From a virus (Duplodnaviria > Heunggongvirae > Uroviricota > Caudoviricetes): a stretch of 38,746 nt of DNA. A program made the translations under genes and the position numbers. The stretch spans positions 1-38,746 of IMG/VR virus record IMGVR_UViG_2648501400_000020, one strand, 5' to 3'. Numbering within the stretch: the first letter of the stretch is position 1; each line of letters begins with the position of its first letter. The notes beneath the pieces were generated by a model that was not told where the DNA came from, searched no databases, and saw only the letters and a list, made by a program, of their open reading frames with translations. This document shows, one piece after another, positions 31,952-38,746 of the stretch.

Positions 31952-34900
31952 ATGAGCACCGATAAACAAGTTTACCCACTGTATTACGAAGCAAAAAATG
32001 ACAAAGTAAGAAAACGTCTCGGTATTAAAGGCGGTTTCTACTGGGCTGAAGCGAAAAAATTATCCATTGCCATCTCCCGTGGTGCTGTTGCGATTGACGA
32101 TGCTGGCTACGATGAAGATGACTTTAAAAAACCTGTTCGCGTCAACTTGCCCGTTGTTGATGACCTTCCACCAGAAGGCGTATTTGATACGGAATTCTGC
32201 AACCGTTACGAAAAAGGCGGGGAAGATGGCATCACAATGGTATTTATCGCGCCCTCATCCTCTGCGCAGGACAAACCAGCCAGCACTGACAATACCAATG
32301 TTAATGGCGAAGACATGACGGAGATTGAGGAGAATATGCTACTCCCGATTTCCGGTCAGGAGCTGCCCATTCGCTGGCTTGCTCAACACGGCAGCGAAAA
32401 ACCGGTAACGCACGTTTCACGCGACGGACTACAGGCATTACACATTGCACGAGCTGAAGAACTACCAGCTGTTACTGCCCTGGCTGTTTCCCACAAAACC
32501 AGCCTGCTCGACCCGTTGGAAATTCGCGATCTCCACAAACTGGTGCGTGATACTGACAGAGTTTTCCCTAATCCAGGCAATTCAAGCCTGGGGCTGATGA
32601 CTGCTTTTTTCGAAGCATACCTGGACGCAGACTACACCGATCGCGGTCTGCTGACAAAAGAGTGGATGAAAGGAAATCGTGTTTCACGCATCACGCGCAC
32701 GGCTTCCGGCGCTAATGCTGGCGGCGGGAACCTCACCGATCGCGGCGAAGGTTTCGTTCACGATCTGACGTCACTGGCGCGCGACGTAGCCACTGGCGTA
32801 CTGGCTCGTTCAATGGACGTGGACATTTATAACCTTCATCCGGCACACGCTAAACGTGTCGAGGAAATTATCGCTGAAAATAAACCGCCCTTTTCTGTTT
32901 TCCGCGACAAATTCATCACCATGCCTGGCGGGCTGGATTATTCCCGCGCCATCGTGGTTGCGTCCGTAAAAGAAGCACCAATTGGGATCGAGGTTATCCC
33001 CGCACACGTCACTGAATATCTTAACAAAGTACTGACTGAAACTGATCATGCCACCCCTGATCCAGAAATCGTGGATATTGCCTGCGGTCGTTCCTCTGCC
33101 CCGATGCCGCAGCGTGTAACAGAAGAAGAAAAACAGGATGATGAAGAAAAACTGCAACCATCTTGCGCAATGGCAGATGAACAGGCAACGGCTGAAACAG
33201 TGGAACCGGATGCAACTGAACATCATCAGGACACGCAGCCGCTGGATGCTCAGTCACAGGTAAATTCTGTTGATGCGAAATATCAGAAACTGCGGGCAGA
33301 ACTCTATGAAGCCCGGAAAAACATTCCGCCCAAAAATCCTGTCGATGCAGACAAATTACTGGCTGCCTCTCGCGGAGAATTTGTTGAAGGGATTAGCGAC
33401 CCGAATGATCCGAAATGGGTTAAGGGGATCCAGACCCGCGATTCTGTGTACCAGAATCAGCCAGAAACGGAACAGAACGACCCAAATACGCAACAAAACG
33501 AGCCAGAAACGAAACAGCCTGAGCCAGTAGTGCAACAACAGGAAACGGAGAAAGTTTGCACCGCCTGCGGTAAGGCTGGCGGCGGCAACTGTCCTGACTG
33601 TGGCGCGGTGATGGGCGACGCAACGTATCAGAAAACCTTTAATGAAGAAAATCAGAATGAATATCAGGAAAAAGGTCTGGAGGAAATGGAAGGTGCTGAA
33701 CATCCGCACAAGGAGAACGCTGGCAGCAATCCGCATTGCGATTGCAGTGATGAAGCTGGTGAAACGACAGCACCTGTAGTAACTGAAATCATGTGGCCGT
33801 CATATTTCGAGCCTGGCCGCTATGAAAACCTCCCGAACGAGGTTTATCACTCCGCCAACGGAATAAGCAGCACAATGCTGAAGGATGCCCGCATCAGCCT
33901 GATGTATTACCACGGACGGCACATTGCCGGAACTATTCCGGGCGAGGAAAGTGATGCATTGCTGCGTGGGCGGATTATTCACAGCTATGTTCTGGAAACG
34001 GATAAATTCGCTGATGAGTATGCCATCCCGGTACCGGTTCCTGAATATGTGGTTACTACTTCTAACGAACTGATCGCCATCATTAAAAAACACAATGCCA
34101 GTCTGCCAGCACTGATGACACCAGAGCAGATGAAAGAGTGGATCGAAAGCTACAACAGCACTCTTATACAGCCACTGTCGGTAAGTGCCGGGGCCGAAGA
34201 AACAGGCATCCTTTACGGTTCGCTTCCGGAGGAATTCCGGCGTATTCCTGAGGGGGAAAAACACACAGCATCAGCAATGAAAGCCTGTATTAAAGAATAC
34301 AACGCAAGCCTCCCTCCTCTGCTGAAAGCCAGTGGAACACGAGAGCAGCTCCTGGAGCAAATTGAAACTGTAGATCCAGAACTGGCAAAAAAAGAACGTG
34401 CTAAATCTTTGCCTTACAACATCAGAGGCACAAAAGAGCAATTAACCGAAATCGCCCGGAAAATTCGCCCGGAACTGGTAACACTGGAGGACTGGCAAAA
34501 ACGCCAGCAAGAAGAAAACGCCGGGAAAACGTTTATCAGTCCGGATATGTATGAACAGGCAAAAAATATTCACGCAGCACTGCAAAACAATACTGATGCA
34601 GCAAGGCTACTCAACCACCCGGATCGCAAATCTGAAATCAGCTATTTCGGGTTTGATGAAGAAACCGGGCTGGAAATCAGGGTCCGTCCTGATATCGAAA
34701 TCCGGCTGCCATACGAAAGCATTTGCGCCGACGTGAAGTCAGTCAGCCTCGGTTATGTGCGACAGGAACGACTGAAAGATCGCCTGCACCGTGAAATTAT
34801 TGAACGTGATTATCACCTCAGCGCAGCAATGTATTGCGATGTGGCAAACCTGGACAAATTTTTCTGGATCTTCGTCAACAAAGATGCTGGCTATCACTGG

Positions 34901-35080
34901 GTGGCCGTCGTGGAAGCCTCGCAGGAACTCCTGGAACTTGGTCGACAGGAATATCGCCGGACACTACGACAGATAAACGAAGCTCTGGAGACAAACAACT
35001 GGCCAGCACCGATTACCGAAAGTTATACCGACGAATTAAACGACTTTGATCTTCGTCGTCTTGAAGCACTGAGCATCTGA
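31952..35080 (+). CDS. recE: RecE-like exonuclease VIII (PD-(D/E)XK nuclease C-terminal domain)
   Basis: 1042 aa; C-terminal RVRPD...CADVKSV...YHLSAAMY motif set (D at 34691); position upstream of annealing protein and int; internal CxxC-N9-CxxC at 33557-33601. Confidence 0.7.
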
Positions 35081-35091
35081 GGAAGGACACA

Positions 35092-36144
35092 ATGAACGAA
35101 TTAACTCAACAAGAAAATATTAACTCTAATGTTGCGGTTTTCAGCCCTCAGTCCCTGGCTGCAATTCAGACATTTTCCCAGGTAATGGCTTCCGGCATGG
35201 CTACTGTACCGGAACACCTCCGGGGAAATCCATCAGACTGCATGGCCATCACCATGCAGGCGATGCAGTGGCAAATGAACCCTTACGCAGTAGCTCAGAA
35301 AACTTTCGTTGTGAATGGTATGCTCGGATATGAAGCGCAACTGGTTAATGCCGTAATCAGTACTCGTGGGCCGCTAACCGGGCGTATTGAATATGACTGG
35401 TTCGGGCCGTGGGAAAAAATTATCGGGAAATTTGAAATCAGGAAGAACGACAAGGGGAAAGAATATCGTGTACCTAGCTGGAAGCTGGCCGATGAAAACG
35501 GGATCGGAGTTCGCGTCCAGGCAACACTACGCGGAGAGAGCAAGCCACGCGTACTGGAGTTACTTCTGGCACAGGCCAGAACACGTAACTCAACGTTATG
35601 GGCCGATGATCCTCGCCAGCAGCTTGCCTATCTGGCACTGAAACGCTGGGCGCGCCTTTATTGCCCTGAAGTGATTCTTGGAGTGTACACCCGGGACGAA
35701 CTGGACGAACCACAGGAAAAAATCATTAATCCGGTTCAGGAACATAAAAATACATCCGCCTGCCGTGCGGAACGTGAAACAACAATTATTGAGCAGGATG
35801 CCGGGGAAAACTGGATCAGTGCTTTCCGTGAACGTATTGAGCAGGCACAAAGCACCGGAGAAACAACATCACTTCGCCAGGAAGTGGAAGATCATAAAAA
35901 TACACTTGGCGCTCTCTACACAGAACTTAAAGGAAAAGTGGTTCAGCGTCATCACCGTCTCAATGCTATTGCCCGTATTGAGACGATGATAAATGACCTG
36001 CCTTCATCAGGTGATCCAGAAGCAGAACAAAAATTTATTGCTCTGGAAAATACGCTGAATGCTGCACGACCACATCTGGGAGAATTATATGAGGCGTATA
36101 AAACGACACTGACAGATATGAAACCAGAATATATCGGCTCCTGA
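35092..36144 (+). CDS. Putative single-strand annealing/recombination protein (RecT/Bet position), family not recognised
   Basis: 350 aa, GAGG Shine-Dalgarno, 11 nt downstream of RecE-like stop; assignment by synteny. Confidence 0.4.
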   Translation: MNELTQQENINSNVAVFSPQSLAAIQTFSQVMASGMATVPEHLRGNPSDCMAITMQAMQWQMNPYAVAQKTFVVNGMLGYEAQLVNAVISTRGPLTGRIEYDWFGPWEKIIGKFEIRKNDKGKEYRVPSWKLADENGIGVRVQATLRGESKPRVLELLLAQARTRNSTLWADDPRQQLAYLALKRWARLYCPEVILGVYTRDELDEPQEKIINPVQEHKNTSACRAERETTIIEQDAGENWISAFRERIEQAQSTGETTSLRQEVEDHKNTLGALYTELKGKVVQRHHRLNAIARIETMINDLPSSGDPEAEQKFIALENTLNAARPHLGELYEAYKTTLTDMKPEYIGS

Positions 36145-36207
36145 TATTTACTATGGCGGTGTAGCCTCACCGCCATAACAAAACTTTATTTTATGAGAGA
36201 AAAGACA

Positions 36208-36402
36208 ATGCGGTATGAAAAAGTCAAACCATGTCCGTTTTGTGGTTGTCCATCAGTAACGGTGAAAGCCATTTCAGGATATTACCGCGCAAAGTGTAAC
36301 GGATGCGAATCCCGAACCGGCTATAGTGGAAGTGAAAAAGAAGCACTCGAAAGATGGAATAAACGAACTACTGGAAATAATAATGGAGGTGTTCATGTAT
36401 AA
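36208..36402 (+). CDS. Lar-like restriction alleviation protein (zinc finger)
   Basis: 64 aa from ATG 36208; CPFCGC...CNGC motif typical of the Lar family. Confidence 0.5.
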   Translation: MRYEKVKPCPFCGCPSVTVKAISGYYRAKCNGCESRTGYSGSEKEALERWNKRTTGNNNGGVHV

Positions 36403-36583: not shown

Positions 36584-36689
36584 GTTGCATTATATACAAA
36601 TTAGAACTTCATAGCTGATTATTAAAAATCAACCACATCCGCCAGTATTCTGTATATTTACTGGCGGTCATATCGTAAGAGGTATGGCA

Positions 36690-36971
36690 ATGAATCTTGT
36701 GACACTCAAAACGTGGGGAAAACTCAGATATCCGGATAACCCACCATCAATATCAACGCTGAGACGATGGGCAAGGAATGGAAACATTTATCCTGCACCT
36801 GAACTACACGGGAGGAGTTACAGGGTGGTTCCGGAGGCTTTCTATATCAACCCAAATAAGGTTGATACCGATATAACACACCATCAGCCTAATGGGCGAC
36901 AAGGGAGAGACAGTCCGTTACTGGAGAAGTTAAAACATGCAGCGGAAAAAATACGATCCCAATTTGCCTAA
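36690..36971 (+). CDS. xis: Excisionase (lambda Xis-like)
   Basis: TLRRWARNGNIYPAPELHGRSYRV resembles the lambda Xis winged-helix core; overlaps int start as in lambda. Confidence 0.6.
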   Translation: MNLVTLKTWGKLRYPDNPPSISTLRRWARNGNIYPAPELHGRSYRVVPEAFYINPNKVDTDITHHQPNGRQGRDSPLLEKLKHAAEKIRSQFA

Positions 36972-38013
36972 AAACTTAACATATCGAAGGAGGGACAAAG
37001 CATATTACTGGCGCAACCCTCTGACGAAAGAAGAATTTACACTAGGTAAAATTTCAAGAAGAGATGCAGTAGCGCAGGCAATTGAAGCAAATCATTATAT
37101 ATACAAAAACTACTCTCCTGCTGCCTTAATTGAAAAGCTTAAAGGGTTCGACTCATTTACTATGGCAGACTGGATTGAACGTTACAAAACGATTCTTATA
37201 AGGAGAAAAGTGTCCAGAAATACTTATAAAATTCGGGTAAATCAACTGGAGACAATAAAAGAAAAATTGGGGGAAATTTTACTGACAGAAATAACCACTC
37301 GCCATATTGCCGAGTTTCTTGATTTGTGGATTGAAGGAGGGAAAAACACAATGGCAGGATCAATGCGTTCTGTGTTGTCTGATATGTTTCGTGAGGCCAT
37401 TGTTGAAGGACGTATATCTCAAAATCCAGTAACGCCAACAAGAGCACCGAAAATAGTAGTTACAAGAGAACGACTGAAACTAAAGACATACAACTGCATC
37501 AGGGAGGCAGCAGATCAACTTCCGGCATGGTTCCCATTAGCTATGGATTTAGCCCTTGTAACAGGACAACGTCGCGAAGACATAACGAATATACGGTTTA
37601 GTGATATTTATGATGATCGTCTCCACATCAGGCAAATTAAGACAGGAATGATGATTGCTATCCCCCTGTCACTCAGCCTTCCTGTCGCTGGTCTACGGCT
37701 TGGTACAGTAGTTGAACAGTGCCGCCTGGTAAGCCGGGGAGATTATCTAATCAGTGCCGGGATTAGAAAAAACAGCCCTGACGGCAGCATTCACCCGGAT
37801 GGCCTGACAAAAAAATTTGTCGCAGCCAGAAAATTAACAGGTATCCAGTTCAGTGAAAACCCACCAACTTTTCACGAGATCAGAAGTCTGGCTGGACGAT
37901 TGTACAAAGAAACATGTGGAGAAGAATTTGCTCAGCGTCTACTTGGCCACACATCGGAGAAGACAACAAAAATGTATCTTGATGAGAGAGAAAAAACGTA
38001 CTTACTGCTCTGA
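36937..38013 (+). CDS. int: Tyrosine integrase, lambda Int family
   Basis: 358 aa; N-terminal arm-binding region ([29 protein letters not shown]) and C-terminal catalytic region ([13 protein letters not shown]...[13 protein letters not shown]) parallel lambda Int. Confidence 0.9.
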
Positions 38014-38404: not shown

Positions 38405-38746
38405 TTAACAGAGTTTTTCAGCTCGCTCTATAAACGGTGCCAGACTCATTTTTTCGCCGGGATTGTTAGGATCATCAATCTGAATCACCGAAATGAGTTG
38501 GGCTTTAGTCTTCCCACTGGCAACTTCCTTTTGTGCGATATCGTTTAAAGGATACTGCACGAGGGTACTTGGGTTGATGACATACAAAGCATTACCTGGT
38601 CGGCAAGCCAGCATCACCTCTTCGCGATTAAACGCCCATTTGTCTTTACCCACTTCAAAACGGCTGACGGTAATCACCTGCGGTGCCGCCAGCGCAGCTG
38701 CAGAACTGGTGAGTAACAGAAACGCCAGAATACTTTTTTTCATCAT
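38405..38746 (-). CDS. Host-type secreted protein with signal peptide (YebY-like)
   Basis: 113 aa, N-terminal [20 protein letters not shown] signal peptide; lies outside the prophage beyond the sRNA locus. Confidence 0.5.

Follow-up and report, generated by a model that had tools for sequence, protein, structure and literature searches.

The window (the whole 38,746-nt stretch of IMG/VR virus record IMGVR_UViG_2648501400_000020 that was analyzed) carries a long recE gene with a co-directional recT 12 nt downstream (Table 1). The recE frame opens with an ATG downstream of a GAGG Shine-Dalgarno sequence, and its product scores 1576 bits against NCBIfam NF007259 (equivalog cut-off 1269), with residues 1-1041 spanning profile positions 1-874 of 877, so that membership of the RecE family extends over the full length of the protein. 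PHROG 607 likewise matches end to end, and Pfam recognizes both DUF3799 and Exonuc_VIII (PF06630; residues 52-189, E 4.3e-38), the latter assigning the N-terminal region to its family. At the DNA level the gene is 99.5% identical to an annotated recE (WP_089590446.1, E. coli PEC41, RefSeq); at least 80% of the allele is present in 128 of 5426 complete E. coli genomes, and its host element is a Rac-like lambdoid prophage of E. coli, inserted beside yebY. A fusion or miscalled ORF was considered and rejected because RefSeq calls the same CDS. Judged by sequence, this ORF encodes RecE (exonuclease VIII), the predicted 5'->3' dsDNA exonuclease of a RecET recombination module. The gene is already annotated and is ordinary as genome annotation; what is undescribed is one structural variant, a repeat array within the nuclease domain, and the literature searched yielded no description of a RecE in which such an array takes the place of the K-12 loop.

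Table 1. Features of the recE-recT locus (window coordinates; residues are those of the encoded protein).
Feature	Position	Strand	Residues	Remarks
recE CDS	31952..35080	+	1042 aa	Exodeoxyribonuclease VIII; listed ORF
Small alpha/beta N-terminal domain	31952..32221	+	1-90	AF2 block-mean pLDDT 65-86 (model of aa 1-500)
Conserved helical core, N-terminal region	32309..33106	+	120-385	
Gly-rich loop (13 residues)	32705-32743	+	252-264	Within helical core
Conserved linear motif (20 residues)	33359..33418	+	470-489	In acidic, predicted-disordered linker
21-nt (7-aa) tandem repeat	33452..33517	+		~3 copies (21 residues); contains 17-nt pair
Zn-knuckle-like module	33557..33628	+	536-559	C-x2-CG-x2-GGG-x-C-x2-CG-x3-GDATY
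Cys motif (15 residues)	33557-33601	+	536-550	CxxC-N7-CxxC
PD-(D/E)XK nuclease domain	33770..35077	+	607-1042	Gifsy/Rac-SA53 type
Catalytic H677	33980-33982	+	677	Aligns with K-12 H652
Helical repeat array (174 aa)	34019..34540	+	690-863	Inside nuclease domain
Catalytic D914	34691-34693	+	914	In RPD (34685-34693); aligns with K-12 D748
Catalytic D927-V-K929	34730-34738	+	927-929	Align with K-12 D759/K761
YHLSAAMY	34811-34834	+		Read in sequence
recT	35092..36144	+	350 aa	Cognate single-strand annealing protein, long Gifsy-type lineage

The neighboring product matches Pfam RecT (E 2.1e-42) and is 48% identical to Gifsy-1 RecT, with no BLASTP similarity to K-12 RecT. Where a surveyed species locus has a readable recE ORF, a gene for a 345-382-aa homologue of this protein follows in most cases; at two Serratia loci (L033 and L035) the annealing protein encoded downstream resembles K-12 RecT more closely.

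The C-terminal domain is predicted to adopt a PD-(D/E)XK nuclease fold like that of the K-12 Rac RecE nuclease domain (PDB 3H4R). In alignment to the K-12 protein, H677, D914, D927 and K929 all match their counterparts, of which D748, D759 and K761 are residues that we take to be catalytic (Zhang et al. 2009 is reportedly the source of that assignment). For H652, the K-12 counterpart of H677, a 2023 review (PMC11611040) gives the role. A RecE-type PD-(D/E)XK exonuclease was what the preliminary description had proposed, and that proposal stands: the catalytic residues are intact, activity is predicted, and the protein family matched end to end is a nuclease family. It had also located the RPD motif correctly; the DVK motif is present but had been placed at 34731-34739, one base out of frame. 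The AF2 model of this domain derives from a shallow alignment of 14 sequences, because two of three homologue searches brought back little beyond near-identical proteins, and no reliance can be placed on its first 60 residues (pLDDT ~30). The domain additionally contains a 24-nt tandem repeat (34559-34603, 1.9 copies), which we judge to be a chance or weak feature.

Breakpoints in blastn comparisons with K-12 Rac, Rac-SA53 and the locus of a DnaQ-fusion prophage exonuclease divide RecE into three segments. Residues 1-112 are of the DnaQ-fusion type (within them the variable segment 1-90 is, by breakpoints and alignment, that of WP_000102181 and not that of K-12); residues 113-604, which carry the zinc-knuckle-like motif and the heptad repeat, are near-identical in protein to K-12 RecE (90% in DNA); and residues 605-1042 are of the Gifsy/Rac-SA53 lineage, as is the recT that follows. 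Relative to K-12, the nuclease domain and recT have, on this alignment evidence, been exchanged as one unit.

In comparison with the 866-aa K-12 protein, the N-terminal part (residues 1-606 versus 1-587) is only 19 aa longer, whereas the nuclease domain (607-1042 versus 588-866) is 157 aa longer; the window RecE exceeds the K-12 version because a 34-aa loop has been replaced by the 174-aa array, contrary to the earlier view of an N-terminal enlargement. By alignment the array maps onto K-12 residues 665-698, a disordered loop at the channel rim, and this K-12 segment has been described as the DNA-capture loop (PMC11611040). The array is built of three "A" units (s-x2-E-h-K-x2-I-x3-N-A-s-L-P) and two "B" units (K-x-SG-[ST]-[RK]-x2-L, in longer form K-x-SG-[ST]-[RK]-x2-L-h-x2-h), and the AF2 model places here eight helices of 8-14 residues each (block-mean pLDDT 73-93), in register with the sequence units.

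Related loci were sought with the whole nuclease-domain alignment, and one scan gave 118 genomic stretches, from many Enterobacterales genera, that encode a relative of the domain (usually with a long RecT). The array is conserved at 36-45% identity in phages of Salmonella, Klebsiella and Aeromonas as well as in many Enterobacterales genera, and is found in only 57 representative clusters among 1.84 billion proteins. Its unit number varies between species from one to about eight, and the length of the surrounding nuclease domain is almost fixed at 423-428 aa across Enterobacterales genera and phages, with extremes of 326 aa (one A and one B unit) and 476 aa (extra units).

Profile comparisons link the array, at low scores, to DNA-binding motifs of SAP/LEM type. 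Pfam SAP matches 13 of 23 orthologous arrays (best E 5.5e-6), only one of the 23 rising above the gathering score (26.3 versus 23.9 bits) and the matches spanning only about half of the SAP profile; SAP_new25, Thymopoietin/LEM and Ish1 are matched as well. The B units correspond to the second half of the SAP profile (PF02037), and the A units to the LEM-like/Ish1 profiles (Thymopoietin PF08198, Ish1 PF10281). The window's own array has no SAP match and falls below every Pfam SAP/HeH threshold, the SAP-clan gathering scores included; its best profile match is Ish1 (E 0.011-0.028, about 15-16.5 bits against a cut-off of 26.6). A profile of the array found nothing significant among PDB sequences (the sole SAP-domain chain, 2kvu, at E 0.68), and a fold search with the C-terminal model gave no separate match for it. 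In the model, the likeness to SAP, LEM and HeH domains would lie in short helical modules, here set in tandem; the array departs from SAP/HeH domains in that the window copy is sub-threshold and the SAP profile only partly covered, and DNA binding by it is putative.

From its homology to the K-12 enzyme, the nuclease domain would be expected to form a toroidal oligomer whose channel admits dsDNA, degrades the 5' strand and passes the 3' tail to RecT for annealing. An SAP/HeH-like array standing where K-12 has its loop might then be an elaborated DNA-capture loop, one that would surround the channel entrance with several small dsDNA-binding modules able to trap DNA ends and keep hold of them; that the array would bind dsDNA is suggested solely by its position in place of the K-12 loop. 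The array could instead be a docking platform for the long RecT, which has a C-terminal helical extension of ~100 aa missing in K-12 RecT. We regard this as unlikely. The array nuclease domain and a long RecT (345-382 aa) do occur together at nearly all loci examined, their joint exchange relative to K-12 would fit a docking function, and coupling of partner exonucleases to the C-terminal helical bundles of RecT has been put forward in a 2026 paper. The co-occurrence, however, comes from one lineage throughout and therefore offers no independent contrast; moreover, the long RecT is kept at two loci where the array is cut to a single A+B (L085 and L086), the same RecT type accompanies extra array units at another (L083), and the K-12-like annealing proteins of the two Serratia loci run against the pairing. 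The account of the K-12 segment as a DNA-capture loop, together with weak profile signals that point to DNA-binding SAP/LEM-type motifs, also favors capture over docking.

The N-terminal region presents a separate question. That it has no recognized function, as the preliminary description stated, agrees with the 2023 review for K-12 RecE (PMC11611040), and the AF2 model of residues 1-500 has no fold relative in PDB or BFVD. Its conserved motifs are the 13-residue glycine-rich loop, GISDPxDPKW and the zinc knuckle; the linear motif of residues 470-489 varies hardly at all across the six proteins aligned, among them the RecE proteins of Gifsy-1 and Klebsiella and the DnaQ-fusion exonuclease, and is present in 10 of 63 species loci. 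The four cysteines are invariant in K-12 RecE, Rac-SA53 RecE, the DnaQ-fusion exonuclease and eight loci of other genera with unrelated flanks, a conserved CxxC-Xn-CxxC pattern consistent with a zinc knuckle and putative metal binding; in alignment the knuckle is absent from Gifsy-1 RecE and a Klebsiella phage RecE. All matches to curated zinc-ribbon profiles were below threshold (NF049953, E 0.0093, 15.9 bits versus 130; Zn_Ribbon_TF, E 0.012; DZR on the L004 homologue, E 0.068). The cysteine pair lies where it was first noted, but its spacer is of seven residues rather than nine. Similarly, the 17-nt imperfect repeat (33459-33475 and 33501-33517) is real, matching at 16 of 17 positions (~0.01 such pairs expected by chance; none of 100 shuffles reached 2), yet it is part of the longer 21-nt repeat, whose heptad copy number differs by allele (K-12 has one unit fewer, L004 one more).

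The region accommodates both insertions and deletions, tolerance of insertions having been suggested as possible in the preliminary description: RecE proteins are anywhere between 462 and 1243 aa long with the nuclease domain almost constant, in-frame deletion variants exist, and the heptad number varies. Natural RecE proteins of 462-577 aa carry the same nuclease domain, and we infer that the N-terminal ~600 aa would be an optional accessory module, dispensable for catalysis. Could the size gain nevertheless represent an expanded N-terminal region with a regulatory or anti-defense function, marked by the zinc ribbon and low-complexity repeat? The lack of a known function or recognizable fold relative leaves room for such a role, as do the strongly conserved motifs (GISDPxDPKW and the knuckle among them) and the portability of the region, which occurs as well in a fusion to a DnaQ/Rv2179c-like 3'-5' exonuclease without a RecT neighbor. 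We nonetheless consider this quite improbable, given the mere 19-aa difference from K-12 and the presence in K-12 RecE of both supposed distinguishing marks (a Zn-ribbon-like motif and an acidic low-complexity linker). PADLOC, which covers defense and not anti-defense proteins, gave no match for RecE, its N-terminal 400 aa or RecT, and no supporting literature was found; the sole reported phenotype of the region, enhanced linear-linear recombination, is a recombination role, and in many relatives that share the nuclease domain the N-terminal module is missing altogether. A "miniRecE E121-T222" (NAR 2026) was set aside as evidence on N-terminal function, the accessible part of that paper stating neither the RecE numbering nor the construct.

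That recE is simply a decaying prophage remnant, its long ORF intact by chance and its extra segments neutral repeat-expansion junk, is very improbable: Rac-type prophages are often cryptic, the linker repeat is variable and deleted or IS-disrupted recE genes occur elsewhere, but this ORF is unbroken over 3.1 kb with conserved catalytic residues, the array is conserved across phages and genera in a domain of near-fixed length, and the same gene type is found in phages whose genomes were deposited as complete (Rac-SA53, mEp237, HK225, Gifsy-1/2).

Taken as a whole, the explanation we favor, namely a RecE of three-part mosaic structure with an array in place of the K-12 loop and an optional N-terminal module, has in our estimate a probability of roughly 85%. 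A more ambitious joint proposal, to which we would give somewhat worse than even odds, is that the array is an expandable SAP/HeH-like tandem replacing the capture loop in Gifsy/Rac-SA53 RecE, and that the N-terminal module, which three unrelated nuclease heads have in common and whose fold resembles none known, is no passive extension and acts autonomously in targeting or in binding a partner. Recombineering relies mainly on two systems, of which RecE/RecT is one, and, to our knowledge, almost all mechanistic work on RecE/RecT uses the K-12 allele; the K-12 form of RecE is not the sole common type. If the array reading is true, a ring of arrays round the channel mouth would alter how DNA ends are found and held, and an array-type RecE could serve recombineering better or with a different specificity; should the array bind DNA, natural alleles would be ready variants with which to test end capture and processivity in recombination, and useful for improving direct cloning. 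The fusion of the N-terminal module to a DnaQ-like exonuclease, in turn, offers a handle on the long-standing question of the first ~600 RecE residues.

Besides K-12 RecE, the closest known systems include proteins that share the array nuclease domain and overall architecture: the RecE proteins of Rac-SA53, Gifsy-1/Gifsy-2, mEp237, HK225 and Klebsiella prophages (961-1048 aa), whose arrays are 97% (Rac-SA53) or 36-42% (the others) identical to that of the window, and which, where checked (Rac-SA53, Gifsy-1 and a Klebsiella phage), sit beside a RecT of ~367-369 aa. Within this group Rac-SA53 RecE differs from the window protein at residues ~113-230, the Gifsy-1 and Klebsiella phage proteins have different linkers, and some Klebsiella alleles have extra A and B units. 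The contrasting case is WP_000102181.1, an 814-aa "exonuclease" of DicB/Qin-type E. coli prophages, whose N-terminal 592 aa are 86% DNA-identical to the window gene and share with it the first 112 aa, the helical core, a ten-residue motif, the heptad repeats and the zinc knuckle; in place of the PD-(D/E)XK domain it ends in an Rv2179c/DnaQ-like 3'-5' exonuclease (PF16473, E 2e-67), and its locus, with no recT downstream, continues into excisionase and integrase.

Several independent results of sequence comparison identify the window protein as RecE, a nuclease identity that the preliminary description had correctly recognised: it matches the exodeoxyribonuclease VIII equivalog (NCBIfam NF007259) end to end, scoring 1576 bits where the cut-off is 1269, is likewise spanned end to end by PHROG 607, carries the Pfam domains Exonuc_VIII (aa 52–189) and DUF3799 (a PD-(D/E)XK family), and is 99.5% identical in DNA to the recE-annotated gene of E. 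coli PEC41 (WP_089590446.1). Loss of the catalytic residues had been proposed as the test that would overturn this assignment; that challenge fails because K-12 RecE H652, D748, D759 and K761 all have counterparts (H677, D914, D927 and K929). A recE gene of this type is common and already annotated: among 5426 complete E. coli genomes, at least 80% of the window allele is present in 128 and some part of it in 4706. The reading frame is unbroken, and the RPD and YHLSAAMY motifs were correctly reported; DVK is real but had been placed one base out of frame, and the CxxC pair is present but with a spacing of seven residues rather than nine. The two 17-nt imperfect direct repeats agree at 16/17 positions (~0.01 such matches expected in shuffled sequence) and both belong to a tandem array of 7-aa units.

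Features of the window recE gene, its product and the adjoining genes
Feature	Position	Strand	Description
recE ORF	31952-35080	+	uninterrupted, 1042 aa; ATG start, GAGG ribosome-binding site upstream
Small alpha/beta domain	aa 1-90		predicted model
Disordered stretch	aa 91-116		predicted model
Helical domain	aa 120-385		predicted model; flexible Gly-rich loop
Acidic linker	after helical domain		predicted model; disordered
Tandem array	33452-33517		21-nt unit, ~3 copies
CxxC pair	33557-33601		CxxC-N7-CxxC
24-nt repeat	34559-34603		1.9 copies, 81% matches (Tandem Repeats Finder); within nuclease domain; probably chance or a weak feature
RPD	34685-34693
DVK	34730-34738
YHLSAAMY	34811-34834		downstream of DVK
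RecT-family gene	35092-36144		Pfam RecT, E 2.1e-42
ralR counterpart	36193-36402	+	69-aa ORF; two CxxC pairs (CPFCGC...CNGC)
Excisionase and integrase	36684-38013		type other than Rac's
yebY	38405-38746	minus	adjoins the prophage element

The prophage is lambdoid and Rac-like, and the gene lies in its early-left recombination module, with kilR, ydaE and racC upstream and the RecT-family gene, then ralR, downstream; in the matching PEC41 locus, ralR (type I toxin/restriction-alleviation protein) is also annotated downstream of recT. Homology of the Rac type (K-12, PEC41, Rac-SA53) ends at 36633, the excisionase and integrase are of another type and the element adjoins yebY, so the prophage joins a Rac-like early-left region to a different integration module and site; this junction is common to 228 E. 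coli genomes.

Alignment to K-12 RecE (866 aa), together with blastn against K-12 Rac, Rac-SA53 and a DicB-type prophage, resolves the protein into a mosaic. Residues 1–112 resemble the prophage "exonuclease" WP_000102181 (814 aa) and not K-12, residues 113–604 are near-identical in protein sequence to K-12 RecE (90% in DNA), and from residue 605 through recT the K-12 type is replaced by the Rac-SA53/Gifsy type, K-12 homology returning at ralR. BLASTP finds no similarity between the RecT proteins of the window and K-12 (E 0.36), and the window RecT is 48% identical to that of Gifsy-1, which indicates that nuclease domain and annealing protein were exchanged as one unit. RecE/RecT-type pairs are known for partner specificity, and the joint exchange is consistent with it. 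At two Serratia loci (L033, S. fonticola; L035, Serratia sp. H1w), the ORF that follows an array-bearing RecE nuclease domain is 372 aa long and matches K-12 RecT best (30% identity) rather than the window-type RecT, possibly a natural partner swap.

The enlargement had been assigned to the N-terminal region; it sits mostly elsewhere, as, relative to K-12, the N-terminal part is extended by only 19 aa and the nuclease domain by 157 aa. Nor do the zinc ribbon and low-complexity repeat set the protein apart from an enzyme in use for decades, because K-12 RecE has a Zn-knuckle-like motif and an acidic low-complexity linker too, in the part that the window shares with it. Window residues 690–863 stand in for K-12 RecE 665–698, the DNA-capture loop in the 2023 review by Bell, Tolun and colleagues (PMC11611040), and are modelled with confidence as an array of eight short helices (block-mean pLDDT 73–93). 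The array comprises three copies of a ~20-aa A unit (s-x2-E-h-K-x2-I-x3-N-A-s-L-P) and two of a ~31-aa B unit (K-x-S-G-[ST]-[RK]-x2-L-L...P...K-P-x-P).

In nature, arrays differ in their number of units, with the remainder of the nuclease domain constant: Leclercia and Escherichia sp. ESNIH1 loci carry a single A and a single B unit (domain of 326–327 aa), a Rahnella locus an intermediate array (373 aa), most species the standard one (423–428 aa), and a Silvania locus (476 aa) and some Klebsiella alleles extra units. The array is uncommon and found in a single context. It is matched by only 57 of 1.84 billion representative proteins, most of them long with the array near the C-terminus; 35 of 36 scanned bearers, the window protein included, have the DUF3799 nuclease domain, and the only phage genes that contain it are those annotated RecE or exonuclease, in genomes that include Rac-SA53, Gifsy-1/2, SPN3UB, mEp237, HK225, Klebsiella phages and an Aeromonas phage. 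Three records may have contaminated or mis-assigned host labels or assemblies: the "Actinobacillus phage" record PP818812.1 (phage matches H32/H62; RecE 80% identical to the window protein overall, 96.6% over the array), and contigs labelled Sphingomonas sp. NPDC019816 (L030) and Streptomyces sp. NPDC002677 (L079), whose enterobacterial-type RecE is ~51% identical.

By itself the window array gives only a sub-threshold Ish1 match. Across 23 orthologous arrays, Pfam SAP matches 13 (best E 5.5e-6, one above gathering score), SAP_new25 seven, Ish1 four, Thymopoietin (LEM-like) three and FANC_SAP two, with SAP falling on B units and Thymopoietin on A units. All five of these families describe small helix–extended–helix DNA-binding motifs, and the profile signal for such a fold is convergent yet weak; we therefore term the array SAP/HeH-like rather than a SAP domain. 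We suggest that, at the mouth of the channel, it would serve as a more elaborate form of the DNA-capture element, with a putative role in DNA binding. The alternative that it docks the long RecT is weakened, as array size ranges from one unit pair to many while RecT type stays the same, and the two Serratia loci combine an array-bearing nuclease with a different annealing protein. Within the library of papers searched, none links RecE with a SAP domain, and replacement of the capture loop by an expandable SAP/HeH-like array in the Gifsy/Rac-SA53 lineage appears to be undescribed.

The N-terminal region, of which aa 1–500 were modelled from a 93-sequence MSA at mean pLDDT 71, is both optional and mosaic. 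Lengths of 462 to 1243 aa occur among RecE proteins that share the nuclease domain, in-frame deletion variants of recE exist, copies of the heptad repeat differ in number, and the N-terminal core occurs in only 5 of 36 compared proteins (the window protein and 35 relatives that the array search found) and in 19 of 63 species loci. Its helical core is conserved among 285 proteins by profile search (nearly all source names enterobacterial among the 120 listed), and the region carries the conserved motif LAAxRGExVxGISDPxDPKW. A Zn-knuckle-like motif (C-x2-CG-x2-GGG-x-C-x2-CG-x3-GD-x-TY) recurs in Kluyvera, Enterobacter, Klebsiella and Pseudocitrobacter loci, its four cysteines invariant despite otherwise unrelated flanks, whereas Gifsy-1 and Klebsiella phage RecE are without it. 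A suggested anti-defence role drew no evidence from a scan with PADLOC, which catalogues defence rather than anti-defence proteins.

The N-terminal module also occurs on other heads. WP_000102181.1 (locus L004, 5001-7445, E. coli strain 150) fuses 592 N-terminal residues of RecE type with an Rv2179c/DnaQ-like 3'-5' exonuclease domain, and the DicB-type prophages that carry this fusion have no recT nearby; at another locus (L003) the same gene is interrupted by an IS3 element. Two protein matches (P0398 and P0343) have the N-terminal core with other precomputed Pfam partners, RecT (PF03837; protein of 435 aa, contig of 811 kb) in one and DUF1482 (PF07358) in the other, and may represent additional fusions or N-terminal modules that stand alone. 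Independently, a 2025 Genome Research paper lists among the components of lambdoid Rec modules both DnaQ-like nucleases and "RecE-2" proteins devoid of a nuclease.

The K-12 capture loop TNAGKEEEKAFLMEC (RecE residues ~675–690) resembles one B unit, such as LTGKKEELQAAIRAV in the compared locus L085, and may be a vestige or a minimal form of the array.
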